DNA of 15,598 nucleotides from a virus (Duplodnaviria > Heunggongvirae > Uroviricota > Caudoviricetes): IMG/VR virus record IMGVR_UViG_2585427738_000003, one strand, 5' to 3'. Each line of letters starts with the position of its first letter. Position 1 is the stretch's first letter. Below the pieces are notes generated by a model. It was not told the origin of the DNA. It did not search any database and saw nothing but the letters and a program-made list of their open reading frames with translations. This document shows positions 225 through 15,598 of this stretch, piece after piece. A program made the translations under genes and the position numbers.

Positions 225-255
225 ATATCAATACGGTGACTGGATACAGCAACAG

Positions 256-603
256 ATGAAAACACTGTCGCGTCACTCAGATACGGCAAAAGCGTTCGCA
301 TACCTGCTGAAACAGTGGGATGCACTGAACGTGTACTGCAGTAATGGCTGGGTGGAAATCGACAACAACATCGCAGAGAACGCCTTACGGGGAGTGGCCG
401 TAGGCCGGAAAAAGTGGATGTTCGCGGGTTCCGACAGCGGTGGTGAACATGCGGCGGTGTTGTACTCGCTGATCGGCACATGCCGTCTGAACAATGTGGA
501 GCCAGAAAAGTGGCTGCGCTACGTCATTGAACATATCCAGGACTGGCCGGCAAACCGGGTACGCGATCTGTTGCCCTGGAAAGTTGATCTGAGCTCTCAG
601 TAA
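256..603 (+). pseudogene. IS66 transposase (TnpC) C-terminal fragment, copy 2
   Basis: 115-aa ORF containing internal TnpC sequence ([46 protein letters not shown]...) followed by the same C-terminus as copy 1. It starts at an internal Met just after the duplication junction at 237/238. Confidence 0.7.
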
Positions 604-616
604 ATATCAATACGGT
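380..616 (+). repeat. Direct repeat of 1-237 (partial tandem duplication of the tnpC 3' end, offset 379 bp)
   Basis: Positions 1-237 and 380-616 align with roughly ten mismatches. Copy 1 diverges at 238 back into internal tnpC sequence, while copy 2 continues into the putative IS terminus. Confidence 0.8.
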
Positions 617-991
617 TCTGACGAGCCGCTTACGGTGAAAATCATGTTTATTTATATATTTCAATTAATTGTAAACTGGTCTAATGACAGGGAGAAAAAA
701 ATATTGTACAGGTAAAAAGATAAATAACTTTTAATTATCAATAAATTACCAAACATGCTGCCGCCGCCATGGAAATGCAAAAACTAGCCTTTTTCCGCGA
801 CGCTCCCGCCCCGTGGCAGGGGCCCCCACCGGGAGGACCCGACAGCCTGACAGCCGTGATGAGCATCTGATACAGCGCTTTACATAATGGCATAGGAATA
901 ATTCAGAAGGACATCACAGCATGCCCACACAAATTAGTGTGAGTGTCCTGTTTCTTCCTACGCACAGGACTGACGAGCATGAGGGGAAAAT

Positions 992-1159
992 ATGCGAACC
1001 ATAAATGCCTCATCTTCAGCAATGCAACCGGCATCCGAACAGGACGATATTGTAAATTCACCTAATTACGAGGACATTGCAGTAGTTGAATTGCAGCTCT
1101 GTATTAGCCTGACAGTGACAGAATGCGATATTGACTCTGTCACAGGTGAAATAGTTTGA
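992..1159 (+). CDS. Candidate small ORF (55 aa), function unknown
   Basis: ATG at 992 preceded by GAGGGG about 6 nt upstream; encodes MRTINASSSAMQPASEQDDIVNSPNYEDIAVVELQLCISLTVTECDIDSVTGEIV; stop TGA 1157-1159. Below the track's 60-aa cut-off. I do not recognise the protein. Confidence 0.25.
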   Translation: MRTINASSSAMQPASEQDDIVNSPNYEDIAVVELQLCISLTVTECDIDSVTGEIV

Positions 1160-1179
1160 ATGATTAGCAGTTATGGTGC

Positions 1180-1386
1180 TCAGTCAACCACCAGGGAATA
1201 ATCCTTCGAATTCTTATCGTGCTTCACCAACGCTGCCTCAATTGCCCTGAATGCTTCCAGAGACACCTGATGTTCTATACATGCAATTACAACATCCGGG
1301 TAACTCATAGAAATGGTGCTATTAAGCATATTTTTTACACGAATCAGATCCAACGAGAGTTCATCAGCAGATTGTTCTTTATTCAT
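1180..1386 (-). CDS. Hypothetical small protein (68 aa)
   Basis: ATG at 1384-1386 with GGAG about 7 nt upstream on the minus strand; 68-aa track [23 protein letters not shown].... Sits where I recall a small unnamed gene upstream of ydfO in Qin; identity not recognised with certainty. Confidence 0.45.
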
Positions 1387-1686
1387 TTTGTCGCTCCATG
1401 CGTTTGCTCGTCATCTAGCGGTTAAAATATTACTTCAAATCTTACTGCATAAAAGAGGAAAAGTATGAAAGTTTGAGTACATCGACCTTACATACATCTG
1501 TCGGTTGCATATCCCTCCTGGATGCCAGCAAGGCTCAATTTTGTTACGCAATCAACACTATTCATTAAAAACAGGCTTAATATTTGACATAAATCATCAA
1601 CAAAACACAAAGAGGTCAGACCAGATTGAAACAATAAACACGATAATGCTAACTACGCGCCATCGTATCACATGGAAGGTTTACCA

Positions 1687-2118
1687 ATGGCTCAGGCTGC
1701 CATTTTTAAAGAAATATTCGATCAAGTGCGTAAAGATTTAAACTGTGAATTATTTTATTCTGAGCTAAAACGTCACAATGTCTCACTTTATATTTACTAT
1801 TTAGCCACAGATAATATTCACATTGTGTTAGAAAACGACAACATAGTGTTAGTAAAAGGACTCAAAAAGGTTGTAAATGTTAAATTCTCCAGAAACAAAC
1901 ATCTTATAGAGACCTCCTATAATAAGTTGAAATCAAAAGAAATCACATTTCAACAATACAGGGAAAATCTTGCTAAAGCAGGAGTTTTCCGATGGGTTAC
2001 AAATATCCAGGAACACCAAAGATATTACTATGCCTTTGATAACTCATTACTATTTACTGAAAGCATCCAGAAAATTACTGAAAGCATCCAGAAAACTACA
2101 CAGATCTTACCACGCTAA
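1687..2118 (+). CDS. ydfO: YdfO-like protein (DUF1398 family), 143 aa
   Basis: Translation [33 protein letters not shown]... matches my recollection of Qin YdfO. Start chosen at the second ATG (1687), which has GGAAGG about 7 nt upstream; the track ORF starts at 1672. Contains a 21-bp in-frame tandem duplication at 2056-2097. Confidence 0.75.
2056..2097 (+). repeat. 21-bp tandem duplication inside ydfO (ACTGAAAGCATCCAGAAAATT / ACTGAAAGCATCCAGAAAACT)
   Basis: Two adjacent 21-nt units, 20/21 identical, encoding [14 protein letters not shown] in frame. Confidence 0.9.
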
Positions 2119-2269
2119 ACCATAACGTCCGGCTTCTCTCACTCCTGAGCCGGACTGCATTGGTTTAATAAAAACCATCAACAATTGTGATTTAGATATT
2201 CGGAACCATTCAAATATAACAAAACCCCGTAAAAACGAGGTTTATGGATAAATTTTATTATTGAATACA

Positions 2270-2443
2270 TCAGATTAAATTAATCTTGACATCATAGCTT
2301 TCAAGACCCGTCATTTTTTCCCGTGCGGTAAACTGAATACTGGTAACTTCTTTCCCGGTCTTTTTCTTAAGTTCAATAATTTTTTTTGTTATATATTCAG
2401 AAATATCTGCTTCTGCTTTTGTTTTTAAGTCTTCAATATTCAT
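2270..2443 (-). CDS. gnsB: GnsB-like small protein (57 aa)
   Basis: Hand translation of the minus strand gives M(M)NIEDLKTKAEADISEYITKKIIELKKKTGKEVTSIQFTAREKMTGLESYDVKINLI, closely resembling my recollection of GnsA/GnsB. GAGGAA precedes the ATG doublet; stop is TGA (TCA on + at 2270-2272). Missed by the ORF track because it is under 60 aa. The start may instead be the upstream ATG at 2446. Confidence 0.75.
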   Translation of the reverse strand: MNIEDLKTKAEADISEYITKKIIELKKKTGKEVTSIQFTAREKMTGLESYDVKINLI

Positions 2444-2614
2444 CATTTCCTCTTTTAGTCTGTTATGACTTTCCAGTTACACAGTAAGTCGATTATATGG
2501 TGCAAACGTGTAAAAGATAAGATGAAACATCGCAATAATCAACATACGATAGTCTAAATTTTACACAAACAGACAAAGAGAATTTTCCTGAATTATCAAT
2601 GCAATAGCATCAAA

Positions 2615-2845
2615 TCAACTCAAGAGCCTTATTGCTGCTTCCAGAATTTCTTCTGAAGTAACATGTCGATCCGCGGCTACATAAATGACTTTATGATCTC
2701 CGGTCAGAGATGGAAACCCTGCGGCCATTACAGTAAGGTGTGTTTTTTCGCCATTTGGATATTCACGCATGATGGTGTTAACTCCAGTCATCGCTGGCAC
2801 TACCACTGCTGGTTCAGAGTTAAAAAAAACTATGATTTTTTTCAT
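2615..2845 (-). CDS. ynfN: YnfN-like small protein (76 aa)
   Basis: Track ORF 2615-2887 starts at a TTG; the first ATG (2843-2845) gives MKKIIVFFNSEPAVVVPAMTGVNTIMREYPNGEKTHLTVMAAGFPSLTGDHK.... Position between gnsB and cspI matches the Qin order as I recall it. Confidence 0.6.
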   Translation of the reverse strand: MKKIIVFFNSEPAVVVPAMTGVNTIMREYPNGEKTHLTVMAAGFPSLTGDHKVIYVAADRHVTSEEILEAAIRLLS

Positions 2846-3116
2846 GATGTTACCGTAGTATGTGAGTATCCATCGAATAGACACCAAGCAAAAAAGCTCC
2901 CGAAGGAGCCTTCATTTTCACTTTTTTAAATCCAACGACAGACGGCTGGCATTTAAGTATTGTGAAATATTATCAAATGTAATCATCATTGATTTACAAA
3001 AGATACATTTTGCCCCGAAAGGATTCATGTCAGAAACATCAAAAGATGATGTTCTATACTGGGAACCATGACAACACGGGCATCTAAAGTGAATATGGTT
3101 TGTAATATTGTCTACC

Positions 3117-3329
3117 TCAAAGCGCCACTACATGAACAGCGGCAGGACCTTTAGGTCCGTTCTCAATACCAAATTCAACTTCCTGATTCTCAGTTAATGT
3201 TTTGAAATCGTTGCTCTGAATTGCTGAGAAATGGACAAACACATCTTTGCTGCCATCTTTCGGCGTGATGAAACCAAAACCTTTTTCAGGGTTAAACCAT
3301 TTCACTAAACCAGTCATTTTGTTAGACAT
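3117..3329 (-). CDS. cspI: Cold-shock protein CspI (CspA family, 70 aa)
   Basis: [70 protein letters not shown] carries the canonical RNP motifs (KGFGFI, VFVHF). AAGG lies upstream of the ATG; about 360 bp of non-coding sequence lies upstream, consistent with a long cold-shock leader. Confidence 0.9.
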
Positions 3330-3690
3330 AATTATTACCTTTTGAAGAAATTAGCCCTTGGGCAGAATGGTCCGAAAAAAATATCAGAGAGAAAAACCAA
3401 CAAGGAAATCTCAAGAGGTACAAATAATAAAATTATAACAATGACTGCTTCAGATAAATTTGTAACAAACCAGAACACCATTAACGCATGATTAACCACC
3501 CATAGCAAGGATTACTTTTGTAAAGAAAAACACAGCAATGAAAGAATAGCTTTATTTATTAATAAAACGTGTCATTCTGATTAAGACCTTTTATCTTACC
3601 CTTAAGATTTCAGGAATTTTGGCTCATGGAAGAGTCCTTTTTATTCAAATTTTACATTCCGCGATGTAAATGTTCCGATTTAATATTACC

Positions 3691-4714
<1,024 letters not shown>

Positions 4715-4718
<4 letters not shown>

Positions 4719-5026
4719 AGATATTTATGATGAGGACGCTCGTGCTTATTGGCAGGATTTTCAATCTTAAAGGAGTACTGATGCTGCAGATAAGACTCAA
4801 CTTTTTCTGACAATTTTTCTGCTACTTCCAGGAAGACTTGCCGGACGCTCCTTCTGGCTGCTGCCTCATAAAACTCCAGCGCAGCTCCTTCAACACGGTC
4901 CATGGCGACATCCAGGTCAAAAATTTCACCGTCAAAGCGTTCTTTGTCCTGTAAGGCTACAGTTACCGTAACTTTATTCTCAAAATTACGGACTCCTTTC
5001 ACAACCAGTTCATAGTCTTGAGTCAT
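4715..5026 (-). CDS. ydfR: YdfR-like protein (103 aa), unknown function, between holin and endolysin
   Basis: 103-aa ORF MTQDYELVVKGVRNFENKVTVTVALQDKERFDGEIFDLDVAMDRVEG...; position matches the Qin lysis cassette as I recall it; 4-nt overlap with the rrrQ start. Confidence 0.65.
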
Positions 5027-5030
5027 TGGA

Positions 5031-5246
5031 TTACTCTCCTCTCGCAGCCTTACGCCTGTCTTCTTTAATCTTGAAATAAAGATTTGTCAGATACGTCAGC
5101 AGGCCAAAAACCAGGCTACCCAGCACACCGATTGCAGCCCACTGTGACGGAGTTACTTTATCGAGTAACTGCAATGCCCAGAAACCAGCATTACCCGCCG
5201 ATGTGCCATAGGCAACACCTGTTGTTAACTTATCCATTGATTTCAT
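5031..5246 (-). CDS. essQ: Class II holin / pinholin (phage 21 S-like) with dual-start motif, 71 aa
   Basis: [71 protein letters not shown] has two transmembrane segments and a charged C-terminus. Met1-Lys-Ser-Met4 is the classic antiholin/holin dual start. GAGG lies about 5 nt upstream of the ATG at 5246. The track ORF is longer (96 aa, starting 5321). Confidence 0.8.
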
Positions 5247-5465
5247 ATCCTCACCCCGATGTACACGGATGGTGCAATATGTTTGAAAAGATCGGAGTCT
5301 ACGGGGTAGTTTTGACAGCACACGTTGTTCTCAACGGCGCTAAAAAAACATACACATTAAAAATGTGGGTAATTATTTTGAAAGAAAGTCATATATAAAA
5401 TAATAATACGAGAAATGTTTTCATATTTAGTGTACTGTATACGGCCATTTATACAGGAAAAGCCT

Positions 5466-5636
5466 ATGTCAGAACGTAAAAACTCAAAATCACGCCGTAA
5501 TTATCTCGTTAAATGTTCCTGCCCAAACTGCACCCAAGAGTCAGAACACAGTTTTTCAAGAGTACAAAAAGGTGCCCTTTTGATCTGCCCTCATTGCAAC
5601 AAAGTATTCCAGACAAATCTTAAAGCTGTAGCCTGA
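5466..5636 (+). CDS. Small zinc-ribbon protein (56 aa; CxxC...CxxC), possibly YdfK/YnaE-like
   Basis: ATG at 5466 with AGGAAAAG just upstream; MSERKNSKSRRNYLVKCSCPNCTQESEHSFSRVQKGALLICPHCNKVFQTNLKAVA has CPNC and CPHC pairs. The track ORF starts earlier (5415) without a ribosome-binding site. Family assignment is tentative. Confidence 0.5.
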   Translation: MSERKNSKSRRNYLVKCSCPNCTQESEHSFSRVQKGALLICPHCNKVFQTNLKAVA

Positions 5637-5694
5637 TTGATTTTATTAGTAACAAGTATTTTTTATATTTTAATAATATATTTAAAGCAGATAA

Positions 5695-5720
5695 TAAAAA
5701 ACCCGCCTGAGCGGGTTTGA
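5695..5720. terminator. Bidirectional rho-independent terminator-like hairpin
   Basis: AAAAAA-ACCCGC-CTGA-GCGGGT-TTT; the T-run is stronger on the minus strand (reverse complement ends in TTTTTT). Confidence 0.55.
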
Positions 5721-5999
5721 GATTGTGGTGCTTTTTGTGGGAGTCATCCACTTACGCACTTTGTTTTGCCATGCCAGCAGTTAGCTTCTGCTGTAAAACT
5801 ATTCATGCAGCAAACCTGCACTTCACCACAATGGTTAGCATACTTTTCCTGATTAAGATTTTGCCAAATATGCTAGCCATTGTTTCATGTATTGGACCTC
5901 CTTACTTTTTATTAAAGAGATCCAATATTCACTACTCTGTCCGTATCTCTACTCAGGCATCAGCCTTCTTCGTTATCGTATACAGACGAGCGATGAATT

Positions 6000-6215
6000 T
6001 TAATCAGTAATGATGACATTTGCTGCTGCAGGACCTTTAGCACCACTCTCTATAGAGAAGGTAACCTTTTGACCTTCAAATAAGGTTCGATAATTATCAT
6101 TCTGAATCGCAGAAAAATGCACAAACACATCTTTACTACCATCAACAGGAGAAATAAAGCCGAAACCTTTATCAGCGTTAAACCATTTTACTAAACCAGT
6201 CATTTTATTTGACAT
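6000..6215 (-). CDS. cspB: Cold-shock protein CspB (71 aa)
   Basis: [71 protein letters not shown] is a canonical CspA-family sequence; divergent from cspF across a roughly 300-bp region. Confidence 0.9.
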
Positions 6216-6515
6216 TCTACATTCCTTAACTTGAGCCTTTCGGCATAAATGGTTTGCATAACAGAAACGACTTCGTACTTAATTGGAGAGACTCAAAGAA
6301 GGAATAAGTGAATAACACCTGAAATGAGAACTGCTTTAGTAAACTACTTCGTATATCGTCTGTTCTTCAAACCGACGCAATCATTAACGCATAGTTGAAC
6401 ATATGAAGCAATGTTTATTTTAGACATCCAGCCATCTTCAACCCCATCAAAAAACTATAGCTTTCTTCAGGAACGTGTGTATAGTGCGCCAAGTTATCAG
6501 TATTAAGGAATTTTT

Positions 6516-6728
6516 TTGTCCCGTAAAATGACAGGAATTGTCAAAACCTTTGACGGCAAAAGCGGCAAGGGTCTTATCACCCCATCCGATGGTCGTATCG
6601 ATGTCCAGCTTCATGTTTCAGCGCTCAATCTCCGCGATGCAGAAGAAATTACCACCGGATTACGCGTGGAATTTTGCCGGATAAATGGTCTGCGTGGCCC
6701 TTCAGCTGCCAATGTTTACCTTTCATGA
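6516..6728 (+). CDS. cspF: Cold-shock-like protein CspF (70 aa), divergent CspA-family member
   Basis: [70 protein letters not shown] has a CspA-like fold signature with degenerate RNP motifs. Confidence 0.85.
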
Positions 6729-7020
6729 GCTATATTAAAGCTTTAATTTCAGGCCCCATCGGATCACACATGGAGAGTTTTTATGAATAACCCCGTCTGT
6801 CTTGATGACTGGTTGATTGGCTTTAAAAGCTTATGCTGTACTTTGGCCGTAATAGCTCTGCTAATAATATAATAAGCAGACTCATTGTGTTTAGGGACAT
6901 TGTACTGGAAGAAAACATTTTAAACATCAGGCAAATAACCAAGTCACCAGCTAAATAATAAGTTAACAGACATGAGTCCCGGGATGAGATTCAACATTAC
7001 CATTGCCCCATTTAAAGCAC

Positions 7021-7044
7021 AAAACCCGCTCATCAGCGGGTTTT
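7021..7044. terminator. Bidirectional rho-independent terminator-like hairpin between cspF and quuQ
   Basis: AAAACCCGCTCATCAGCGGGTTTT followed by a T-rich run on the + strand and a T-run on the reverse complement. Confidence 0.55.
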
Positions 7045-7149
7045 CTACTTTTTCTTAACGTCGGGTATACAAAGCCCATCGTTGAAAAAATTTTATCCAT
7101 ATTTTTTGAAAAATGCAAACATCATGTCGCCATCTTCAGCAAAAATCAT

Positions 7150-7902
7150 TTATCTCGTCACCTTCCTCAATTGCGCTTCCGCGTATGCTTCTTCCTGCCA
7201 GCACTTTGTTACCAGTTTACCAATGACGTCCGCATACCCCTTATACCACTGATAATCGGTCAGGTCTGGTACCAGCTTCTGGACATGACGTCGTGCCAGC
7301 GTGGTCGGTAAACGACTAAACCGGTTTCCATTACAACGCCCACAAATCTTATATACCGGTACGCCATGAAACCGGGTTCTTTTTTCATCCAGAACAATCC
7401 CTTTACCCTTACACCCTCTGCACGCTGTGCTGGCTTCGCCCTTACCATGGCAATGCTGACATAGTTCCTTCACCCATTCTTCCTTGATTACAGATTCCCC
7501 GCGTCTGTAGTGTTTCACCACTTCGCGCAATACATTATAAAATCCCGTACCTGAACAATGCTCACAGCGAGCCTTACTTGCCGCAGACCTGGAGTAATCA
7601 GCAAAGGCAAAACTCACGAGGTAAGGAATAATCTGTAACCGGATTTCTTCACTCAATTTGTTCAATGTCGGGTTATCCAGTGCCATCGCGTAATTTAGCA
7701 GGCCTTCAATCGCAAACTGAGGGTCCTGAACACCAACTTTTGCCAGAAATAAGGCCAACCCAAGTGGTGCTTTCGACTGCACCATCCCCTGCGCTGCCAT
7801 TACATCCGTAATTGTTAAACAACCGGTGCCTGTCGCTGGAGCGTCATCGCTCAATTTTGGAGATTTTGGGGAGTAATATTTTGGTAAGGCTTCAAGGTTC
7901 AT
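7150..7902 (-). CDS. quuQ: Late-gene antiterminator Q (phage 82/21-type), 250 aa
   Basis: Start at the ATG at 7900-7902 (MNLEALPKYY...) with GGAG about 9 nt upstream; the track ORF starts earlier. Multiple CxxC pairs (CEHCSGTG, CQHCHGKG, CRGCKGKG, CGRCNGN) fit the Q zinc-binding region. Located upstream of the lysis cassette on the same strand. Confidence 0.8.
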   Translation of the reverse strand: MNLEALPKYYSPKSPKLSDDAPATGTGCLTITDVMAAQGMVQSKAPLGLALFLAKVGVQDPQFAIEGLLNYAMALDNPTLNKLSEEIRLQIIPYLVSFAFADYSRSAASKARCEHCSGTGFYNVLREVVKHYRRGESVIKEEWVKELCQHCHGKGEASTACRGCKGKGIVLDEKRTRFHGVPVYKICGRCNGNRFSRLPTTLARRHVQKLVPDLTDYQWYKGYADVIGKLVTKCWQEEAYAEAQLRKVTR

Positions 7903-7915
7903 GCTCGTTCTCCAC

Positions 7916-8965
7916 TTACGCCAGTACGCCAATTGCCAGCGCGCGATCGATAAAACGAAATATCAGCTCCAGTTGGGAGCCATACTTATCTTCAAATGCC
8001 ACTGTATCCGTATGCAGCTCGTTGTGATGCTTTCTGCACAAAGGCAACACAAAGAGATCATGTGCTTTTGTTCCCATTCCGCCCTGCCCGTGACCAATCA
8101 GATGATGCGGATCGTCGGCTGGCATACCGCAGCAAGCACACGGCTGTGTCTTAACCCAACGTGTGTATTTCTCCTTAACCCAGCGGCGACGTTTAGGCAG
8201 CTTCATGAAAGATTCCGGAGACTCTGGATCAACGGTGATGCTTACCACCGTCTTTTCCTGTGGTGATTTTTGTTGCTGGTGGGCGTAAGGCAACGGTGCA
8301 AGATTTTTTGTGCGTTGTTTCAATATGCTGGTGGCGGTCTGCTCTCCCGGTACGATGTCGCTTTCGCGGTACACCGAGCAGATTTTTTCCGCTGGTAATC
8401 CCAGCGAACGACGCGATACAGCCTCAGGTAGTGCATCCACCACCTGATTGCAGACCGCCCACCAGGATAATTCAGCCAAAGATAATTCCCGCTCCTGCGT
8501 ACCGCTTATTGCGTGACGGATGACGTCAATCACCCATGCTGTCAGATTTTGTTGAGCAAGCAGCTCCAGTGATTCCGATGTCTGGTCACGCAGTTGGTTG
8601 TCGCAGTGCCAGCACAACACCATTGCGCCGGTACCATAACGGTGAATGACTGTTTCAGTGTGATGGTAATCGCCATTAGGCCACTGGCAGGATGTAACAT
8701 GACGTAATAGCCAGTCGGACAATGCGCCAACGCCGCCAGCAGCACGAATCACCCGTTCGTTACTAAAAAACGGCAGCAATGTTTTGTCTTCCGCCATCGG
8801 CTGGCGAACGGCAGGAACGACTCCGGATGGCAGATTACGCATGCTTTTTGGTTCCGGTTCCACCAGCACTCGAGGATTATGAAATATCTGTATGGATTCA
8901 CGGCCCGGCTTAAGGACCACCAGCCCAAGCTCAGGCACCAGAACAGGTCTAAGTAATACCCGCAC
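7916..8965 (-). CDS. ydfU: YdfU-like protein (DUF968) with C-terminal HNH-like motif, 349 aa, probable GTG start
   Basis: Track ORF begins at a GTG at 9004. I place the start at the in-frame GTG at 8963-8965 because GGAGG lies 5 nt upstream and it sits 1 nt after the rem stop (translational coupling); this gives 349 aa. C-terminus CACCGMPADDPHHLIGHG...PLCRKHHNELH resembles an HNH nuclease motif. Confidence 0.7.
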   Translation of the reverse strand: MRVLLRPVLVPELGLVVLKPGRESIQIFHNPRVLVEPEPKSMRNLPSGVVPAVRQPMAEDKTLLPFFSNERVIRAAGGVGALSDWLLRHVTSCQWPNGDYHHTETVIHRYGTGAMVLCWHCDNQLRDQTSESLELLAQQNLTAWVIDVIRHAISGTQERELSLAELSWWAVCNQVVDALPEAVSRRSLGLPAEKICSVYRESDIVPGEQTATSILKQRTKNLAPLPYAHQQQKSPQEKTVVSITVDPESPESFMKLPKRRRWVKEKYTRWVKTQPCACCGMPADDPHHLIGHGQGGMGTKAHDLFVLPLCRKHHNELHTDTVAFEDKYGSQLELIFRFIDRALAIGVLA

Positions 8966-8966
8966 G

Positions 8967-9245
8967 TTACCTCCAGATCCGTTGCTGGAAAGTGCGGGAC
9001 GCACGTGGTGGGCGTTCGGAATAAGGCAGCCTGACAGAGATTATCCAGTGCCGATAGTCGAGACTGAGAGCTTTCTTAACCTCGAACCCGCGCCTGCGGT
9101 AAGAATGAATCAGCCATTCGGCCTGTTCTGCAGTGCATGGAGGGTGCTGGAACCATTCAGACTTGAATGCGTGAGAATACCGCCCGTGCGTGCAGGCAAG
9201 AACGGGCGAATTATCAGAATTGTAATATTTTGCGTTGCGTGCCAT
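8967..9245 (-). CDS. rem: Rem-like small protein (92 aa), unknown function
   Basis: ATG at 9243-9245; MARNAKYYNSDNSPVLACTHGRYSHAFKSEWFQHPPCTAEQAEWLIHSYRRRGFEVKK...; stop TAA 8967-8969 immediately precedes the ydfU start. Confidence 0.65.
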   Translation of the reverse strand: MARNAKYYNSDNSPVLACTHGRYSHAFKSEWFQHPPCTAEQAEWLIHSYRRRGFEVKKALSLDYRHWIISVRLPYSERPPRASRTFQQRIWR

Positions 9246-9311
9246 CGGTTTTCTCCGGTGGCACGGTGTTACTCAGCGGGAGTTCAGCCCCGCGCAAGAT
9301 TGTAGATGAGT

Positions 9312-9563
9312 TTATTCTCCTGAAAAAGCAGAAAAGCCAGCTTTTATTCCGATCTCTTTCAATGCCTGTAATGAAGTGACAAACTCACCTTCGCGCAAGA
9401 TAAATCCGTCCGTGACCCGAGCATCCACAAAATTAATTAACGCAGCCCCATTCTTTCGCAAACACATAATGCGGTAATGACTAACAAGATTTCCATTTTC
9501 AACGCACACAGCATAGAGGCCATCTTCACAAAAAATTTTACGCAGTTCTTCGATGTTCATCAT
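9312..9563 (-). CDS. Hypothetical protein (83 aa)
   Basis: ATG-ATG start at 9558-9563 with GGAAGGA upstream on the minus strand; MMNIEELRKIFCEDGLYAVCVENGNLVSHYRIMCLRKNGAALINFVDARVTDGFILREGEFVTSLQALKEIGIKAGFSAFSGE. I do not recognise the family. Confidence 0.5.
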   Translation of the reverse strand: MMNIEELRKIFCEDGLYAVCVENGNLVSHYRIMCLRKNGAALINFVDARVTDGFILREGEFVTSLQALKEIGIKAGFSAFSGE

Positions 9564-9680
9564 CAGAATCCTTCCGGATAATTAGCTCTCCCCTTTAAGG
9601 GACCATCCCTCTTATCCCTGCGCGCTACTTAAGTATTTTTGATTCTATTCCGGCACCGTCCAGAACTTCAAACGCGTTGA

Positions 9681-9711
9681 AAATAAAAACAAAAACCCGC
9701 CGAAGCGGGTT
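9681..9711 (-). terminator. Rho-independent terminator downstream of hokD (end of the relB-relE-hokD transcript)
   Basis: On the minus strand: AACCCGC-TTCG-GCGGGTT followed by TTTTGTTTTTATTTT. Confidence 0.6.
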
Positions 9712-9779
9712 AAGTGCGGGTGCGTTGAGGATGCCTGCCACATCAGAGGTGGCGAGGGATTTCTCCCCCGCCGGGTCTC

Positions 9780-9935
9780 TTACTCCTCAGGTTCGTAAGC
9801 TGTGAAGACAGCGACCTCCGTCTGGCCGGTTCGGATTCGTACCTCGCAGAGGTCTTTCCTCGTTACCAGTGCCGTCACTATGACGGTTAAACAGATGACG
9901 ATCAGGGCGATTAACATCGCCTTTTGCTGCTTCAT
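9780..9935 (-). CDS. hokD: Hok-family membrane toxin HokD/RelF (51 aa)
   Basis: Hand translation gives MKQQKAMLIALIVICLTVIVTALVTRKDLCEVRIRTGQTEVAVFTAYEPEE, a typical Hok toxin with N-terminal transmembrane helix and conserved C-terminus. Below the track size cut-off. Downstream of relE on the same strand. Confidence 0.85.
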   Translation of the reverse strand: MKQQKAMLIALIVICLTVIVTALVTRKDLCEVRIRTGQTEVAVFTAYEPEE

Positions 9936-10006
9936 AGCCTGCTTCTCCTGTCAACGCAAAGCAGAAGTGTCACCTTCGGTGCGAAACAGAGATGTCATGC
10001 TTTGGT

Positions 10007-10294
10007 TCAGAGAATGCGTTTGACCGCCTCGCTATATACTTCCGAGCGTTCTCTTTTCCCAACAGAAATCACGAAAACGACAACTTTCTCGTCTATAACC
10101 TGGTATACAAGGCGATAGCCTGAAGACCGGAGCTTAATCTTGTAACAATCAGGCATACCACGGAGCTTGTTTGCTTCAATCCGGGGTGACTCAAGTACTT
10201 CAACCAGCTTCTTTTTCAACTGTTCACGTACCGTCGAGCCCAGCTTTCGCCATTCCTTTAGTGCCCGCTCGTCAAAATCCAGAAAATACGCCAT
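10007..10294 (-). CDS. relE: RelE mRNA-interferase toxin (95 aa)
   Basis: MAYFLDFDERALKEWRKLGSTVREQLKKKLVEVLESPRIEANKLRGMPDCYKIKLRSSGYRLVYQVIDEKVVVFVISVGKRERSEVYSEAVKRIL; start overlaps the relB stop. Confidence 0.9.
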   Translation of the reverse strand: MAYFLDFDERALKEWRKLGSTVREQLKKKLVEVLESPRIEANKLRGMPDCYKIKLRSSGYRLVYQVIDEKVVVFVISVGKRERSEVYSEAVKRIL

Positions 10295-10533
10295 CAGAGT
10301 TCATCCAGCGTCACACGTACTGGCTTAGGATTACGAAGCCGTTCTTTCACTATCTCCACAAGTTCAGCATCTTCATCACTCAGGAGTGTCTGTTTGAACG
10401 GCAAGCGTTCATTGTCAGCGATATACTCGAGCATGAGACGAAGCGCTTCAGAAGGAGTTACACCCATTTTTTCAAGCGCGGCGTAAGAACGCGCTTTAAG
10501 TTCATCGTCAATACGCAGGTTAATGCTACCCAT
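10294..10533 (-). CDS. relB: RelB antitoxin (79 aa)
   Basis: MGSINLRIDDELKARSYAALEKMGVTPSEALRLMLEYIADNERLPFKQTLLSDEDAELVEIVKERLRNPKPVRVTLDEL has a ribbon-helix-helix-like N-terminus; immediately upstream of and overlapping relE. Confidence 0.9.
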   Translation of the reverse strand: MGSINLRIDDELKARSYAALEKMGVTPSEALRLMLEYIADNERLPFKQTLLSDEDAELVEIVKERLRNPKPVRVTLDEL

Positions 10534-10544
10534 GTCTTACACCT

Positions 10545-10570
10545 CTTGTAATTACAAATGTCATTACAAG
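10545..10570. promoter_or_regulatory. relBE operator-like near-palindrome (relO) in the relB promoter region
   Basis: CTTGTAATTACAAATGTCATTACAAG contains the perfect palindrome TTGTAATTACAA (10546-10557) and a related repeat TGTCATTACAA, 12-37 bp upstream of the relB start codon. Confidence 0.6.
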
Positions 10571-10759
10571 TATCGCACTACAACATGCTTAGGGCAAGTC
10601 ACGAAGGAAGTCAGAAAGTAGTCGTAAGAACGGTGATCACTGTCCGCTTTGTGCCAGGAGCAGCCATTGCTAAGTCCATCCTGTATTGTGCAGGTCAGCT
10701 CGTTTTTAAAGAGTCCGGCCATCATCTTACTGGTACAGACACCATATACTTTGTGACGG

Positions 10760-10894
10760 TCAGGCTAGACGCATCGCGCGACCTTCGGGAACTAAATCCC
10801 CTTTCCAGCTATAAAGCGAAGCCAAACGAATACCTGCTGCTTGTGCAAGTTTTGTTTTTGAACCGAAATACAAAAGAGCGTCAGTTTTAAGCAT
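10760..10894 (-). CDS. dicC: DicC-like (Cro-like) regulator, only 44 codons here, possibly truncated
   Basis: Minus-strand ATG at 10892-10894, divergent from dicA; MLKTDALLYFGSKTKLAQAAGIRLASLYSWKGDLVPEGRAMRLA then TGA. I recall DicC as about 76 aa with the same N-terminus, so the 3' portion appears absent or replaced. Below the track size cut-off. Confidence 0.55.
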   Translation of the reverse strand: MLKTDALLYFGSKTKLAQAAGIRLASLYSWKGDLVPEGRAMRLA

Positions 10895-10911
10895 TTAAAA
10901 CACCTTTACTG

Positions 10912-10975
10912 TTAGTTATAACTAACAAGATAGATGTTAACAAAAACATAGTCAATACGATTTAGCATTAGCTAA
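10912..10975. promoter_or_regulatory. dicC-dicA divergent promoter/operator region with two TTAG-N6-CTAA sites
   Basis: Perfect 14-bp palindrome TTAGTTATAACTAA (10912-10925) and TTAGCATTAGCTAA (10962-10975) share TTAG...CTAA half-sites, lying between divergent dicC-like and dicA starts; the second abuts the dicA ATG. Confidence 0.45.
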
Positions 10976-10977
10976 CT

Positions 10978-11385
10978 ATGGAAACAAAAAATTTAACTAT
11001 CGGCGAACGCATCAGGTATCGTCGGAAAAACCTCAAACACACCCAAAGGTCTCTTGCTAAAGCCCTGAAAATCTCCCATGTGTCTGTATCACAATGGGAA
11101 CGGGGTGATAGTGAACCTACAGGGAAGAACCTTTTTGCCCTCAGCAAAGTATTGCAATGCTCACCAACATGGATTCTATTTGGCGATGAAGACAAGCAAC
11201 CAACACCACCTGTTGAGAAGCCAGTTGCCTTATCCCCCAAAGAACTAGAGCTCCTTGAGCTGTTTAATGCACTGCCAGAATCAGAACAGGATACCCAGCT
11301 CGCCGAAATGCGAGCTCGAGTAAAAAACTTCAATAAACTCTTTGAAGAATTACTAAAAGCCCGTCAGCGGACAAATAAAAGATAA
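10978..11385 (+). CDS. dicA: DicA repressor (XRE-family HTH, phage C2-like), 135 aa
   Basis: METKNLTIGERIRYRRKNLKHTQRSLAKALKISHVSVSQWERGDSEPTGKNLFALSKVLQCSP... has a classic XRE helix-turn-helix (QRSLAKALKISHVSVSQWERG). Confidence 0.9.
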   Translation: METKNLTIGERIRYRRKNLKHTQRSLAKALKISHVSVSQWERGDSEPTGKNLFALSKVLQCSPTWILFGDEDKQPTPPVEKPVALSPKELELLELFNALPESEQDTQLAEMRARVKNFNKLFEELLKARQRTNKR

Positions 11386-11551
11386 CATCATCAATGAGTT
11401 ATCTTTTACCACATCAATTATGTTAGCTATAGCATACAAAATCACTTGACCGATATGTTAGTCATGGCTAATCTTGTTTGCATCAACACACCGCACGGTG
11501 TTCTCAGCAAACAGTTCCGCTACCCCAGCGTTAAGGGGAAATGAGGTCAGC

Positions 11552-11707
11552 ATGGATACTATCGATCTTGGCAACAACGAATCTCTGGTGTACGGCGTGT
11601 TTCCAAACCAGGACGGCACGTTCACCGCAATGACGTATACCAAAAGCAAAACGTTTAAAACCGAAAATGGTGCCCGTCGCTGGCTGGAAAGAAACTCAGG
11701 TGAGTGA
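11552..11707 (+). CDS. ydfA: YdfA-like small protein (51 aa)
   Basis: ATG at 11552 with GAGGT about 4 nt upstream; MDTIDLGNNESLVYGVFPNQDGTFTAMTYTKSKTFKTENGARRWLERNSGE. The track ORF starts earlier at 11474. Confidence 0.75.
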   Translation: MDTIDLGNNESLVYGVFPNQDGTFTAMTYTKSKTFKTENGARRWLERNSGE

Positions 11708-11708
11708 T

Positions 11709-12284
11709 ATGGATTTCGACACAATCATGGAAAAGGCTTACGAAGAATACTTCGAAGGCCTTGCCGAAGGCGAAGAAGCTCTCAGCTTCAGTGAGTTTAA
11801 ACAGGCACTCAGAATAAGAATGTGCTCTCACAATGACGCGGAGCACAAATATGAGAAGCAAAATCAGACCGCAGAAAATTTTGTTCTGGAACCCGGAGAA
11901 ACGCTTTTCAAAATTCCCGTTACGTGCCCCATTTGCGGTTTTACATCAGAAGAACTTGACGACTCCTGTAACAATCAGGAAACAACCAAGTATGTCGAAG
12001 ATGATACCGAGTGCGCACGAAGAACGATTATATCCACGAGTCCAAACTCCAGGACCAATAAATCTCACTATGAGAGGGTGATTAATCCACTCCCCCAAAC
12101 CAATAAAAAAGATGCCGGAGGACAAAAAACCCAATGGAACAACGGGATATCTGTCAAAAAAAGACGTTCCATTAAAGACAAACAACGCAGCGCCAACAAC
12201 TGTAAGCGCTTTATACCAGTAATCAATTTTCATGTTCTTAAGCGGATTTATTGGTGGTTGCGACATTGCTTAATGAATCCTTAA
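11709..12284 (+). CDS. 191-codon ORF covering the ydfB/ydfC region; cysteine-rich middle, basic C-terminus
   Basis: ATG at 11709, one nucleotide after the ydfA stop (TGA-T-ATG); MDFDTIMEKAYEEYFEGLAEGEEALSFSEFKQALRIRMCSHNDAEHKYEKQNQTAENFVLEPGETLFKIPVTCPICGFTSEELDDSC... then a Lys/Arg-rich tail. The frame is open for 191 codons. The track ORF (11667) starts at an upstream GTG. Confidence 0.5.
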   Translation: MDFDTIMEKAYEEYFEGLAEGEEALSFSEFKQALRIRMCSHNDAEHKYEKQNQTAENFVLEPGETLFKIPVTCPICGFTSEELDDSCNNQETTKYVEDDTECARRTIISTSPNSRTNKSHYERVINPLPQTNKKDAGGQKTQWNNGISVKKRRSIKDKQRSANNCKRFIPVINFHVLKRIYWWLRHCLMNP

Positions 12285-12543
12285 AACTGTGGTGATTTTA
12301 AGGATACCACCTCGCCTGACGTGGTTAAAAGCAGGCACACAACACGAAAGCGCACGGCGAAGTTCGTCTCACTGTACGGTGTCGTTAAATTTAATTCGAC
12401 CGTGCGCTTCCGGTTGTGGCAACCCGCAAAATGGCGCGGCGGTAAGTATGGCGGGGTTATTCCTTCCCCGTTGAGGACACCGGGTTGTCAGGTTGACCAT
12501 ACGCTTAAGTGACAACCCCGCTGCAACGCCCTCTGTTATCAAT

Positions 12544-12601
12544 TTTCTGGTGACGTTTGGCGGTATCAGTTTTACTCCGTGACTGCTCTGCCGCCCTTTT
12601 T
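12544..12601 (+). ncRNA. dicF: DicF small regulatory RNA (ftsZ-targeting sRNA processed from the dicA-operon transcript)
   Basis: TTTCTGGTGACGTTTGGCGGTATCAGTTTTACTCCGTGACTGCTCUGCCGCCC followed by TTTTT matches the DicF sequence as I recall it, including the GGCGG...CCGCC terminator stem and U-tail. Confidence 0.85.
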
Positions 12602-12607
12602 AAAGTG

Positions 12608-12751
12608 AATTTTGTGATGCGGTGAATACGGCTAAGCGCACGCGGAACAGTTAAAACCAAAAACAGTGTTATGGGTGGATTCTCTGTATCCGACGTTAAT
12701 TGTTAACTGGTTAACGTCACCTGGAGGCACCAGGCACTGCATCACAAAATT
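12608..12751. repeat. 13-bp perfect inverted repeat (AATTTTGTGATGC at 12608-12620; GCATCACAAAATT at 12739-12751) bracketing the dicF-dicB spacer
   Basis: The arms are exact reverse complements; the left arm starts 7 nt after the dicF U-tail and the right arm ends 20 nt before the dicB ATG. Confidence 0.8.
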
Positions 12752-12770
12752 CATTGTTGAGGACGCGATA

Positions 12771-12959
12771 ATGAAAACGTTATTACCAAACGTTAATACG
12801 TCTGAAGGTTGTTTTGAAATTGGTGTCACTATCAGTAACCCTGTATTTACTGAAGATGCCATTAACAAGAGAAAACAAGAACGGGAGCTATTAAATAAAA
12901 TATGCATTGTTTCAATGCTGGCTCGTTTACGTCTGATGCCAAAAGGATGTGCACAATGA
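12771..12959 (+). CDS. dicB: DicB cell-division inhibitor (62 aa)
   Basis: ATG at 12771 with GAGGA 7 nt upstream; MKTLLPNVNTSEGCFEIGVTISNPVFTEDAINKRKQERELLNKICIVSMLARLRLMPKGCAQ. The track ORF starts earlier at 12666. Confidence 0.9.
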   Translation: MKTLLPNVNTSEGCFEIGVTISNPVFTEDAINKRKQERELLNKICIVSMLARLRLMPKGCAQ

Positions 12960-13147
12960 ATTCAGCATTTGCGCTTGTTCTGACAGTTTTTCTTGTTTCC
13001 GGAGTGCCAGTTGATATTGCAGTCAGTGTTCACAGGACAATTCAGGAGTGTATGACTGCAGCAACCGAACAGAAAATTCCCGGTAACTGTTACCCGGTCG
13101 ATAAAGTTATTCACCAGGATAATATCGAAATCCCGGCAGGTCTTTAA
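12956..13147 (+). CDS. ydfD: YdfD small membrane lysis protein (63 aa)
   Basis: ATG overlaps the dicB stop (ATGA); MNSAFALVLTVFLVSGVPVDIAVSVHRTIQECMTAATEQKIPGNCYPVDKVIHQDNIEIPAGL has an N-terminal transmembrane helix. Confidence 0.85.
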   Translation: MNSAFALVLTVFLVSGVPVDIAVSVHRTIQECMTAATEQKIPGNCYPVDKVIHQDNIEIPAGL

Positions 13148-13240
13148 AACAGTTCCGTAATAAATATCCGGTTTCATTCTTATATGCCAGCAATGGCAGG
13201 GATTTGTTCATCCTTAAATCTGTCATGAGGTTAAAACAAA

Positions 13241-15181
13241 ATGAGTAAAGTCTTTATTTGCGCCGCTATTCCTGACGAACTGGCAACAAGGGAAGAAGGC
13301 GCTGTGGCTGTAGCCACAGCCATTGAAGCTGGCGACGAACGCCGTGCTCGAGCAAAATTTCACTGGCAGTTCCTGGAACATTATCCGGCTGCTCAGGACT
13401 GCGCTTATAAATTTATTGTCTGCGAGGATAAACCTGGCATACCCCGCCCTGCCCTCGATTCATGGGATGCTGAATATATGCAGGAAAACCGCTGGGATGA
13501 GGAGTCTGCTTCTTTTGTCCCGGTTGAGACTGAATCCGATCCGATGAACGTCACTTTTGACAAGCTGGCCCCTGAAGTACAGAACGCTGTCATGGTTAAG
13601 TTCGACACATGTGAAAACATCACCGTTGATATGGTTATTAGCGCACAGGAATTGTTGCAGGAAGACATGGCAACATTCGACGGACATATCGTTGAAGCGT
13701 TGATGAAAATGCCAGAAGTTAACGCCATGTATCCGGAGCTTAAGTTGCACGCCATTGGGTGGGTTAAGCATAAATGTATTCCTGGTGCTAAATGGCCCGA
13801 AATTCAGGCAGAGATGCGCATCTGGAAAAAACGTCGCGAAGGTGAACGCAAGGAAACCGGAAAATACACGTCTGTTGTTGATCTCGCCCGCGCCAGAGCC
13901 AATCAACAGTACACTGAAAATTCAACAGGAAAAATCAACCCGGTCATTGCTGCCATTCATCGCGAATACAAGCAGACATGGAAAACACTGGATGACGAAC
14001 TGGCCTACGCTCTCTGGCCTGGTGATGTGGATGCCGGAAACATTGACGGCAGCATCCATCGCTGGGCAAAAAAAGAAGTTATCGACAACGACCGCGAAGA
14101 CTGGAAGCGTATCTCGGCATCAATGCGCAAACAGCCTGATGCCCTTCGCTACGACCGCCAAACTATTTTTGGCCTTGTCCGTGAGCGTCCGATCGACATT
14201 CACAAAGATCCCGTAGCACTGAACAAATATATCTGCGAATACCTGACGACAAAGGGCGTGTTTGAGAATGAAGAAACAGACCTGGGCACTGTTGATGTTC
14301 TCCAGTCATCAGAAACACAAACTGATGCAGTGGAAACGGAAATACCAGACAACGAAAAAACCGAATGCAAAGTGGAAGTCGAACCATCTGTAGAACGTGA
14401 GGGGCCGTTCTACTTCCTCTTCACCGACAAGGACGGAGAAAAATACGGTCGCGCAAACAAACTTTCTGGTCTGGATAAGGCACTGGCTGCTGGCGCCACT
14501 GAAATCACAAAAGAAGAATATTTTGCCCGAAAAAATGGCACATACACGGGCTTACCGCAAAATGTAGATACCGCTGAAGATTCAGAACAACCAGAGCCGA
14601 TAAAAGTTACCGCTGACGAAGTAAACAAAATTATGCAGGCAGCCAATATCAGCCAGCCTGACGCCGATAAGTTGCTTGCTGCATCACGTGGTGAATTTGT
14701 TGAAGGGATTAGCGACCCGAATGATCCGAAATGGGTTAAGGGGATCCAGACCCGCGATTCTGCGAACCAGAACCAGCAAGAAACGGAACAGAACGACCAG
14801 AAAGCGGAACAAAACAGCCCAAATACGCAACAAAACGAGCCAGAAACGAAACAACCTGAACCAGTAGTGCAACAGGAACCGGAAAAGATCTGCACCGCCT
14901 GCGGTCAGAGCGGCGGCGGCAACTGCCCTGATTGTGGCGCGGTGATGGGCGACGCAACATACCAAGAAACATTCGATGAAGAGTATCAGGTTGAAGTTCA
15001 GGAAGATGATCCGGAGGAAATGGAAGGCGCTGAACATCCACACAAGGAGAACACTGGCGGCAATCAGCATCACAACAGCGATAATGAAACTGGCGAGACG
15101 GCAGATCACCCAATTAAGGTGAACGGTCATCACAAAATCACATCCACCAGCAGACGGGGACCATCTAATGATCGACCTTGA
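13241..15181 (+). CDS. ydfE: Large acidic protein (646 aa), YdfE-like; C-terminal CxxC-x11-CxxC zinc ribbon flanked by low-complexity Q/E/N-rich segments
   Basis: ATG at 13241 with GAGG about 10 nt upstream; the N-terminus [20 protein letters not shown]... matches what I recall of the Qin YdfE fragment. C-terminal region has [32 protein letters not shown], then [16 protein letters not shown], then an acidic His-rich tail. I recognise no catalytic motif. Confidence 0.7.
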
Positions 15182-15598
15182 AACCATGGGAAAAAATCCC
15201 GATGCCCCGATCATCTCAATAGGTGCAATATTTTTCGATCCGCAAACCGGAGATATGGGACCGGAATTTAGTAAGACTATCGATCTGGAAACTGCTGGCG
15301 GAGTCATTGATCGGGACACCATTAAATGGTGGCTTAAACAATCACGCGAAGCGCAATCTGCCATTATGACCGATGAAATCCCGTTAGATGATGCACTGTT
15401 ACAATTGCGGGAATTTATCGACGAAAACTCCGGTGAATTTTTTGTTCAGGTCTGGGGAAATGGAGCCAACTTCGACAACACGATTTTGCGCCGTTCATAC
15501 GAACGGCAGGGGATCCCCTGCCCGTGGCGTTACTACAACGATCGCGATGTACGCACAATCGTTGAGCTGGGGAAAGCCATAGACTTCGATGCCAGAAC
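15168..15598 (+). CDS. DnaQ-like (DEDD family) 3'-5' exonuclease, 5' partial (runs off window end)
   Basis: ATG at 15168 overlapping the preceding stop by 14 nt in the +1 frame. Hand translation [34 protein letters not shown]...[40 protein letters not shown]... contains Exo I (D-L-E-T) and Exo II (NGANFD) motifs. Absent from the ORF track because no stop is reached. Confidence 0.7.

Follow-up and report, generated by a model that had tools for sequence, protein, structure and literature searches.

The two overlapping open reading frames at the distal end of the DNA stretch analysed here (the window, 15,598 nt in full) very probably represent a single ydfE-type gene, interrupted by a net loss of 2 nt at the seam between its scaffold and nuclease parts, with the split private to one draft contig. 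It corresponds to the Qin-prophage ydfE at full length, which closes the early-left operon under dicA control (dicF-dicB-ydfD-ydfE) and is followed by xis-int. It is among the most widespread of Escherichia coli prophage genes; no fewer than 64% of complete E. coli genomes carry an intact copy. The gene is already known, being annotated and placed in curated families (Pfam YdfE_N/YdfE_C, PHROG 2082 and NCBI 'exonuclease'), and none of the findings is new enough, or specific enough to the window, to rank highly. The case does show that a frameshifted gene in a draft contig can pass for a novel overlapping gene pair, and that comparison with close relatives resolves the matter.

The split reading frame

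The source contig is JOSC01000029.1, from assembly GCA_000713505.1 of E. coli 6-537-08_S1_C2, a draft that stops at 15598 within the exonuclease gene. All features discussed are on the + strand. ORF1 (13241..15181; KEN49154.1) begins with ATG and encodes 646 aa; its product is acidic, as first described, with a pI of 4.68 computed from the sequence. The second ORF (15168..15598), which carries the DEDDh exonuclease domain, begins with the ATG at 15168, shares its first 14 nt with ORF1 and is left incomplete by the contig end, which is also the end of the window. Directly 5' of ORF1 (span 12771..13147) are dicB (12771-12959; PF05358 DicB on the contig record) and ydfD (12956-13147; PF07358 DUF1482 on the contig record), both with the same annotation in relatives, and further upstream is the DicF sRNA (12545..12596; Rfam RF00039, 76.7 bits vs a gathering score of 48). 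The placement of the pair at the distal end of the dicB operon was therefore right. The order dicF-dicB-ydfD is present in the window, and xis-int lies directly 3' of the gene in five relatives.

The first-pass annotation read the two ORFs as a two-gene module, with the overlap implying co-translation. This did not survive comparison: the close relatives examined have a single 823-aa CDS (a 2,472-nt ORF), annotated "exonuclease", at 98-99.6% DNA identity, and the single-CDS form is also found in the free phage HannyBb at 99.8% protein identity. Aligned with the relatives' ORF, the window is 2 nt short at ~15154/15155, which places the nuclease domain in the +1 frame. At the frameshift site (15150..15160) the window reads CAGCAGACGGGGACC vs CAGCAGGACGTGTGACC or CAGCAGAGCGGGGATTC in relatives, a net change of -2 nt. 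Because of the deficit, ORF1 ends after seven out-of-frame codons; its product thus consists of the N-terminal 639 aa of the ydfE-type 823-aa exonuclease, seven out-of-frame residues and a stop, and the second ORF from 15168 represents aa 641-783 of the 823-aa protein. The missing nucleotides fall in a hypervariable seam, TSTSR-xxx-HLM, just 5' of the nuclease domain, and the seam TSTSR-xxx-HLMIDLE is in frame in 27 of the 27 seam variants among the proteins retrieved by that stage. The start of the nuclease ORF happens to be the Met of the HLM-IDLET junction.

How widely does the junction occur? A 201-nt query across it has 6,820 homologous places in 5,426 complete E. coli genomes; at none does the identity to the window version reach 99%, and all of the best 30 matches listed span 203 nt rather than 201. 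The exact 39-mer junction has no match in 185,579 species-representative genomes, and in a collection of 15 billion proteins the exact 646-aa product comes from one contig only, the window's own. Other short members of the cluster (632-657 aa) are contig-end partials and are not frameshifted; products of about 646 aa elsewhere were considered as further split copies and rejected, as their ends coincide with contig ends.

Is a true two-gene operon still conceivable, in which a 646-aa zinc-ribbon protein and a DEDD exonuclease are coupled through the 14-nt overlap as a DNA-end-processing module? Both ORFs and the overlap are present in the window, the ATG at 15168 precedes an intact Exo I with a weak GGGGA 7 nt upstream, and stand-alone nuclease homologues in phages start with MN(H/N)LM(I/V)DLETMG, so that an unfused state is biologically possible. 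Yet the arrangement occurs on one contig alone, with one ORF in all the relatives, and the start chosen for the second gene in GenBank, the ATG at 15186, removes Exo I and gives an annotated product of 138 aa. Such an operon is thus very improbable, and the absence of conservation already largely refutes it. Judged by these sequence comparisons, the module is not a real conserved feature, and the overlap is a product of the 2-nt deficit; some free nuclease may nevertheless be expressed independently from the downstream ORF. That programmed ribosomal frameshifting of +1 (or -2) rebuilds the 823-aa fusion from the split template is hardly credible. The shift needed is indeed +1, near the rare Arg codons AGA-CGG, but no slippery motif is recognised, all other copies of the gene are in frame without a shift, and conservation, the hallmark of programmed shifts, is absent.

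We return, then, to one interrupted gene. From 237 to 14337 the window has no mismatch to strain 504239, which carries a nearly identical Qin prophage, and 54 of the 54 differences from this strain lie within 14338-15452, in the 3' half of the ydfE-type gene. With these 54 differences and the 2-nt gap, the gene as a whole is ~98% identical in DNA to the intact copy of strain 504239, and mosaic patches at 14338-14428 and 14763-14910 match other alleles. Copies of ydfE-type genes number up to 10 per genome, with a median of 2. The privacy of the split, the clustering of all differences in the 3' half and the contig end within the gene point either to a real and recent pseudogenising mutation or to a sequencing or assembly error in a multi-copy prophage gene, and the two seem about equally probable. 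A simple chimera of two alleles, of the TCD and AGI types, was also considered for the seam; it resembles both and matches neither, and a plain graph chimera thus does not explain it.

Scaffold, tether and exonuclease domain

The intact 823-aa protein consists of a folded, RecE-related scaffold of ~435 aa with no catalytic fold, an acidic, Q/N-rich, disordered tether of ~200 aa, and a DEDDh exonuclease at the C-terminal end. The YdfE-type head (aa 1-240; 13241..13960) lies in the stretch, aa 1-256, that shares 99% identity with the K-12 YdfE fragment, and is predicted with AF2 pLDDT mostly above 90; in the model it comprises an alpha/beta domain (aa 1-100) and a helical domain (aa 105-227), and a structure search with it gave no significant fold match. 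There follow a helical middle domain (aa 241-345; 13961..14275; pLDDT above 90), which aligns to RecE 278-351 and to the NF007259 profile from position 271, and a small, basic beta-hairpin/helix domain (aa 388-440; 14402..14560; pI 8.2, pLDDT ~95) that begins with EGPFYFLF. Single-strand annealing, Gam-like and Abc-like folds, suggested earlier as ones to look for, were not found by structure search.

In the AF2 model aa 381-646 are mostly disordered. Within the predicted disordered tether is a near-invariant linear motif of 16 residues (aa 483-498; 14687..14734); no other columns of alignment A2, whose members differ in heads and effectors, reach 90% conservation. The tether also carries a CxxC-x7-CxxC knuckle. 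The zinc ribbon of the first-pass annotation is real, but its spacing is not CxxC-x11-CxxC; it reads C551-x2-C554-x7-C562-x2-C565 (14891..14935), with a weak, sub-threshold DZR match in Pfam. It is kept in RecE and missing from several family members. The Q/E/N-rich and acidic His-rich segments described on either side of the ribbon are present.

The downstream ORF is, by its motifs and domain matches, a DnaQ/DEDDh-type 3'-5' exonuclease, as had been proposed. Numbered from 15168, Exo I (DLET) is at aa 3-6 and Exo II (NFD) at aa 101-103; the position of Exo III (H-x4-D) lies past the contig end, where the continuation in relatives reads HNALDD. The intact relative matches PF16473 (Rv2179c-like) at 2.4e-67 and 226.5 bits vs a gathering threshold of 27, and the contig record lists the same family for the window's 138-aa product. 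In the PDB the domain has a single sequence match, T4 DexA (8KEL, E 1.5e-6 with phmmer).

As to family membership, the 823-aa relatives belong to PHROG 2082 and carry Pfam YdfE_N, YdfE_C and Rv2179c-like domains (e.g. WP_000048316, "exonuclease"). With P0017, the representative of the 823-aa cluster, the 646-aa product shares 92% identity, and it is colinear with positions 1-639 of 823 in phrog_2082 (1477 bits). PF27430 YdfE_N and PF27432 YdfE_C are recorded for the window's own product; the Rv2179c-like domain is present in the window but on a separate polypeptide from these two. The local Pfam copy gave only the sub-threshold DZR match with the 646-aa protein, and the YdfE_N/YdfE_C models are newer than that copy. 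These family matches do not support the implied novelty of the protein. Membership of a well-characterised family had been named as a finding that would count against the module: the match to curated families is there, but the function of the family is uncharacterised. A literature search on ydfE, on Rv2179c with prophage and on PF16473 returned nothing functional, and no experiment on any YdfE-family member.

Relation to RecE and to other nucleases

The closest counterpart is ydfE (b1577) in the K-12 Qin prophage, a pseudogene that represents the same gene at the same locus, dicB-ydfD-ydfE. The first-pass statement that K-12 Qin retains only a fragment was correct: K-12 ydfE is cut by IS2, whereas in the window copy the 2-nt deficit separates the nuclease domain from the rest, and the contig stops within the gene.

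The window gene occupies the same operon slot as RecE (exonuclease VIII) of Rac, and the first-pass suggestions of a recET slot and of a search for a RecE N-terminal-like region both proved apt. The window protein aligns over aa 262-627 with K-12 RecE 278-592 (E 7e-62); the homology takes in the middle region, the aa 483-498 motif, the zinc ribbon and the acidic linker. Against the RecE family model NF007259 it scores 288 bits vs a cut-off of 1269, over profile positions 446-600 (best stretch) or 271-600. Unlike RecE, the window protein lacks the PF06630 head, and neither it nor the 823-aa relative has a Pfam match to the PD-(D/E)XK nuclease (PF12684/DUF3799); the nuclease is of the DEDDh type with opposite polarity (3'-5'), and no recT follows the gene in relatives. 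A 900-aa sister protein has the same N-terminal ~620 aa joined to the RecE PD-(D/E)XK nuclease, and recT and lar lie downstream of its gene. Only this RecE-nuclease form is followed by recT; no annealase gene is found 3' of the 823-aa form in five relatives.

The DEDDh fold family also includes T4 DexA and EcD, its E. coli homologue (HREX; 8KEL/8KEN), and the window domain keeps the catalytic DxE as well as the Asp of Exo II. The similarity to DexA is distant, and the window-type domain is fused to a 640-aa scaffold. In DexA, W152 is needed for recognition of 5hmC, together with Asp D169, and D90 is a tetramer residue lost in EcD (PMC12153337). In the phmmer alignment to 8KEL, W152 is replaced by Tyr, D90 is retained as Asp (Ala in EcD) and D169 lies outside the aligned stretch. 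The change at W152 and the retained D90 mean that an EcD-like specificity is not supported.

Stand-alone DnaQ-like nucleases, e.g. Salmonella phage epsilon34 gp34 and that of phage 1720a-02, are 56-60% identical to the window nuclease domain and share with it the N-terminal (H/N)LM(I/V)DLETMG. These are single-domain proteins of ~183-190 aa, whereas here the domain is normally fused to a RecE-like scaffold. The epsilon34 nuclease is encoded in the early-left operon, in a recombinase-SSB-exo-Abc2 module (PMC12315714); unlike modules of this type, the 823-aa gene adjoins xis-int and has no annealase, SSB or anti-RecBCD gene. The match to the family of Rv2179c from Mycobacterium tuberculosis, the founder of PF16473, spans the whole nuclease domain; Rv2179c is a chromosomal, stand-alone exoribonuclease.

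Possible function

The intact protein is most likely a tethered 3'-5' DNA exonuclease, as its domain composition suggests. Through its scaffold and the aa 483-498 motif the protein would be brought to a partner or to DNA ends, and the tethered DexA-like domain would degrade DNA 3' ends when the early-left operon of the prophage is derepressed. The protein might serve in recombination or in the processing of ends, like the DnaQ-type nucleases of other lambdoid Rec modules, or alternatively in the exclusion of other phages, as reported for EcD. A 3'-5' exonuclease has the wrong polarity to produce the 3' tails on which annealases act.

Could the protein be primarily an anti-phage (superinfection exclusion) nuclease of the HREX/EcD kind and not a recombination protein? 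EcD protects against T4 by degrading 5hmC DNA (PMC12153337), and the nuclease domain is homologous to DexA. The gene has no annealase gene as a neighbour and is kept in a large share of E. coli genomes, and DnaQ-type genes that adjoin int stand outside the canonical Rec modules (PMC12315714). On the other side, PADLOC gives a weak and generic DEDDh match only, the residues equivalent to W152 and D90 are unlike those of EcD, and EcD is a stand-alone protein that starts with MIDTET. Sister proteins, moreover, put the RecE nuclease and RecT on the same scaffold, which speaks for recombination, and a primarily anti-phage role is on balance unlikely, if worth keeping in view. More doubtful still is an exoribonuclease that acts on RNA 3' ends instead of DNA. 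The best Pfam match is named after the 3' exoribonuclease Rv2179c, and '3'-5' exoribonuclease' is the NCBI name of many copies, but the family name rests on a single characterised member, DexA is a DNase, and both the genomic slot and the sister forms that carry RecE nuclease are directed to DNA.

With a tethered DNA exonuclease as the preferred reading, a wider and speculative one may be put forward, although the chances are against it: in the YdfE family a RecE-type scaffold may have exchanged the 5'-3' PD-(D/E)XK nuclease and RecT for a DexA-like 3'-5' DEDDh nuclease, with a role beyond classical exo/annealase recombination, e.g. in keeping out phage DNA, possibly modified, as it enters or in trimming the 3' ends of breaks in host or phage DNA, directed by binding of the aa 483-498 motif to a putative partner. 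If this is so, the same scaffold would constitute a general 'effector-on-a-leash' platform.

The large N-terminal region is common to the gene and RecE, and its role is a long-standing question. Full-length RecE boosts linear-linear recombination, and the function of its N-terminal region is likewise unassigned (PMC11611040). The effectors that swap on the same scaffold are the RecE nuclease, a larger PD-(D/E)XK domain, RecT and an unclassified phrog_7838 module. This last C-terminal module of sister proteins has no Pfam or PDB sequence match, and an impression that it is Rad52-like was dropped as unsupported. Interchangeable nucleases and annealases on one scaffold, together with a near-invariant short motif, offer a concrete handle on the role of the N-terminal region.

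A frameshifted gene at the distal end of the dicB operon

With DicF (12545-12596), dicB and ydfD directly upstream, the locus lies in a Qin-type prophage, at the far end of its dicB operon, as the first-pass annotation had placed it. Two plus-strand reading frames are present: one of 646 codons (13241-15181, ATG start), whose product is acidic (pI 4.68), and a second that runs from an ATG at 15168 and is still open at the window end. The 14-nt overlap between them exists as sequence, but the overlapping, co-translated two-gene module that had been read from it does not hold. In the annotated relatives opened (strain 504239, O26:H11 11368, GDAR2-2, a draft with the AGI-type allele and the free phage HannyBb), a single 2,472-nt CDS, annotated as an exonuclease of 823 aa, spans both frames. 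Alignment gives one gap; the window is short by 2 nt at about 15154/15155, where it reads CAGCAGACGGGGACC and the relatives read CAGCAGGACGTGTGACC or CAGCAGAGCGGGGATTC. Their protein is continuous across the seam, with three variable residues (TCD, AGI, VWY, LWH, VRH or FWH) between ...TSTSR and HLM..., and 27 of 27 seam variants, found among 149 proteins retrieved, are in frame. The PHROG 2082 family has 823 positions, of which the 646-aa protein matches 1-639, and the 2.6-kb region was matched in 4,803 of 5,426 complete E. coli genomes, at least 80% covered in 3,487 of them. The two frames are one gene, known, annotated and very common, of which the window carries a copy with a frameshift.

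The split is private to the window contig. A 201-nt junction query found 6,820 places in 3,998 complete E. coli genomes, none at 99% identity, and the best 30 matches listed all span 203 nt; the exact 39-nt junction was not found in 185,579 species (one genome each). The exact 646-aa sequence (KEN49154.1) occurs on a single 15,598-bp contig, the window itself (JOSC01000029.1, GCA_000713505.1, E. coli 6-537-08_S1_C2). Other cluster members of 632-657 aa were considered as frameshifts and rejected, as these proteins are cut at contig ends. The GenBank annotation of the contig starts the nuclease frame at a second ATG, window 15186 (position 2946 of locus L014; MGKNPDAP...), which would remove the catalytic D-x-E of Exo I that the ATG at 15168 retains.

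Origin of the frameshift

Did the frameshift arise by mutation, or in assembly? Between 237 and 14337 (14.1 kb) the window has 0 mismatches to strain 504239 (NZ_CP025859.1), and all 54 differences from that strain, plus the 2-nt gap, lie within 14338-15452. Patches of difference at 14338-14428, 14763-14910 and 15134-15158 match other alleles of the multi-copy exonuclease gene, a pattern indicating gene conversion among prophage paralogues or a mixed-copy assembly, and the contig ends inside this gene, 430 nt past the frameshift. Gene conversion with a genuine frameshift in a decaying cryptic prophage is about evenly balanced against a mis-assembled or mis-called repeat. Real decay is plausible, since an IS element interrupts the gene in K-12, and in an O157 genome it carries a frameshift annotation. 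A simple chimera of two alleles offers no explanation, because the window seam differs from both alleles compared. On either origin, mutation or sequencing/assembly error, the overlap is uninformative about co-translation; and a programmed frameshift that would restore the fusion is not supported, as no other copy of the gene requires one.

The contig terminates in a repeat on each side. On the right (15598) this is the multi-copy exonuclease gene, and on the left (1-237) a fragment of an IS66-family element (ISCro1) with 95% identity to a shifted part of the relative's copy.

A RecE-related scaffold with interchangeable effectors

Over residues 1-256 the protein shares 99% identity with YdfE, the pseudogene fragment of K-12 Qin; K-12 thus retains only a fragment here, as stated earlier. 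A RecE-like N-terminus had also been suspected, and residues 262-627 indeed align with 278-592 of K-12 RecE (exonuclease VIII), the non-catalytic portion of that enzyme, at 39% identity overall and far higher beyond aa 470. The NCBIfam RecE model is matched at positions 271-600 only (288 bits; cut-off 1269), and newer Pfam models describe the two regions as YdfE_N (PF27430) and YdfE_C (PF27432). The function of the RecE N-terminal region has been described as unknown (PMC11611040).

The N-terminal ~620 aa (about 90-94% identity) are common to three architectures, in which the scaffold is followed by an Rv2179c-like DEDDh domain (812-830 aa), by the RecE PD-(D/E)XK domain DUF3799 (900 aa) or by a longer PD-(D/E)XK domain (1,058 aa). 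At its locus (L007, 6348-9852) the 900-aa form has recT and lar behind it, the arrangement of Rac, in agreement with the recET slot proposed earlier; in the relatives opened, xis-int comes directly after the DEDD form and there is no annealase. An exhaustive search gave only 246 representatives at 50% clustering. Family members are mosaics: a head of one of two types, YdfE-type or RecE-type (PF06630), is combined with the common middle domain, a linker and one of various C-terminal effectors. Protein P0157 (805 aa) has a RecE-type head and the same DEDD domain, P0230 is a RecE-N/RecT fusion and P0047 has a larger PD-(D/E)XK domain; the phrog_7838 C-terminal module of some members (the mosaic set includes P0218) had no match by sequence in Pfam or the PDB. 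"RecE-2" proteins that lack a nuclease domain are also reported in a survey of lambdoid Rec modules (PMC12315714). The scaffold is a mosaic platform whose effector modules are interchangeable.

AlphaFold2, with a 35-sequence alignment, modelled aa 1-470 with confidence (mean pLDDT 84.5); the folded parts are an alpha/beta domain (1-100), a helical domain (105-227), a helical domain shared with RecE (245-340) and a small basic beta-hairpin/helix domain (388-435). Most of the stretch 441-646 is predicted to be disordered. Within this region, a 16-residue motif (aa 483-498, window 14687-14734) is the sole near-invariant element family-wide, with any head or effector; it looks like a short linear interaction motif, a candidate for partner binding. 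The zinc ribbon noted earlier is present between Q/N-rich and acidic His-rich segments, but its central spacing is x7 (C551-x2-C554-x7-C562-x2-C565) rather than x11, and it is not universal in the family.

The nuclease domain and its possible role

The second frame carries DnaQ-type Exo I (DLET) and Exo II (NFD) motifs, and its product belongs to Pfam PF16473 (Rv2179c-like), with T4 DexA as its sole PDB sequence relative (8KEL, E 1.5e-6); the DnaQ-type assignment stands. Phages commonly encode stand-alone homologues of ~183-190 aa, which begin MN(H/N)LM(I/V)DLETMG (phage loci L011, 4001-4549, and L012, 3998-4570), and the seam HLM of the fused gene thus keeps the N-terminus of a once-separate gene. 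The hypervariable seam residues are the three immediately ahead of HLM. In Salmonella phage epsilon34, the stand-alone gene lies between SSB and Abc2, adjoining a putative recombinase. The 2025 lambdoid survey had already reported DnaQ-like 3'-5' nucleases in Rec modules, citing epsilon34, and sporadic DnaQ-type genes adjoining int (PMC12315714).

Scaffold, disordered tether and DEDDh domain together make up one polypeptide, which is broken in the window copy. A literature search found no experimental work on ydfE or the intact form. What might the intact protein do? With moderate confidence, a DNA-directed tethered exonuclease is favoured. Upon derepression of the operon, the scaffold and invariant motif would engage a partner or DNA ends, and the tethered DexA-like domain would then remove DNA 3' ends, which could serve in recombination or end processing, or to exclude other phages. 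T4 DexA was shown in a 2025 study to be a 3'-5' DNase (PMC12153337). RNA as the substrate appears improbable. Defence seems unlikely, though less so: the E. coli DexA homologue EcD, a stand-alone protein that starts MIDTET, protects against T4 by degrading 5hmC DNA (PMC12153337). However, EcD-like specificity is not established for the ydfE-type nuclease, as the 5hmC-recognising W152 of DexA aligns with Tyr, and the D90 position, Ala in EcD, is Asp.

Elsewhere in the window, two cspA-type thermoregulator 5' leaders (3090-3474 and 5984-6376, both minus strand) belong to cspI and cspB, cold-shock genes of the prophage, as named in the relative. In strain 504239, ydfV and dicC are annotated as abutting, truncated pseudogenes (locus L013, 10322-10658; window counterpart about 10558-10894) and ydfB is also partial, which suggests that DNA has been deleted from the immunity region in this Qin variant.
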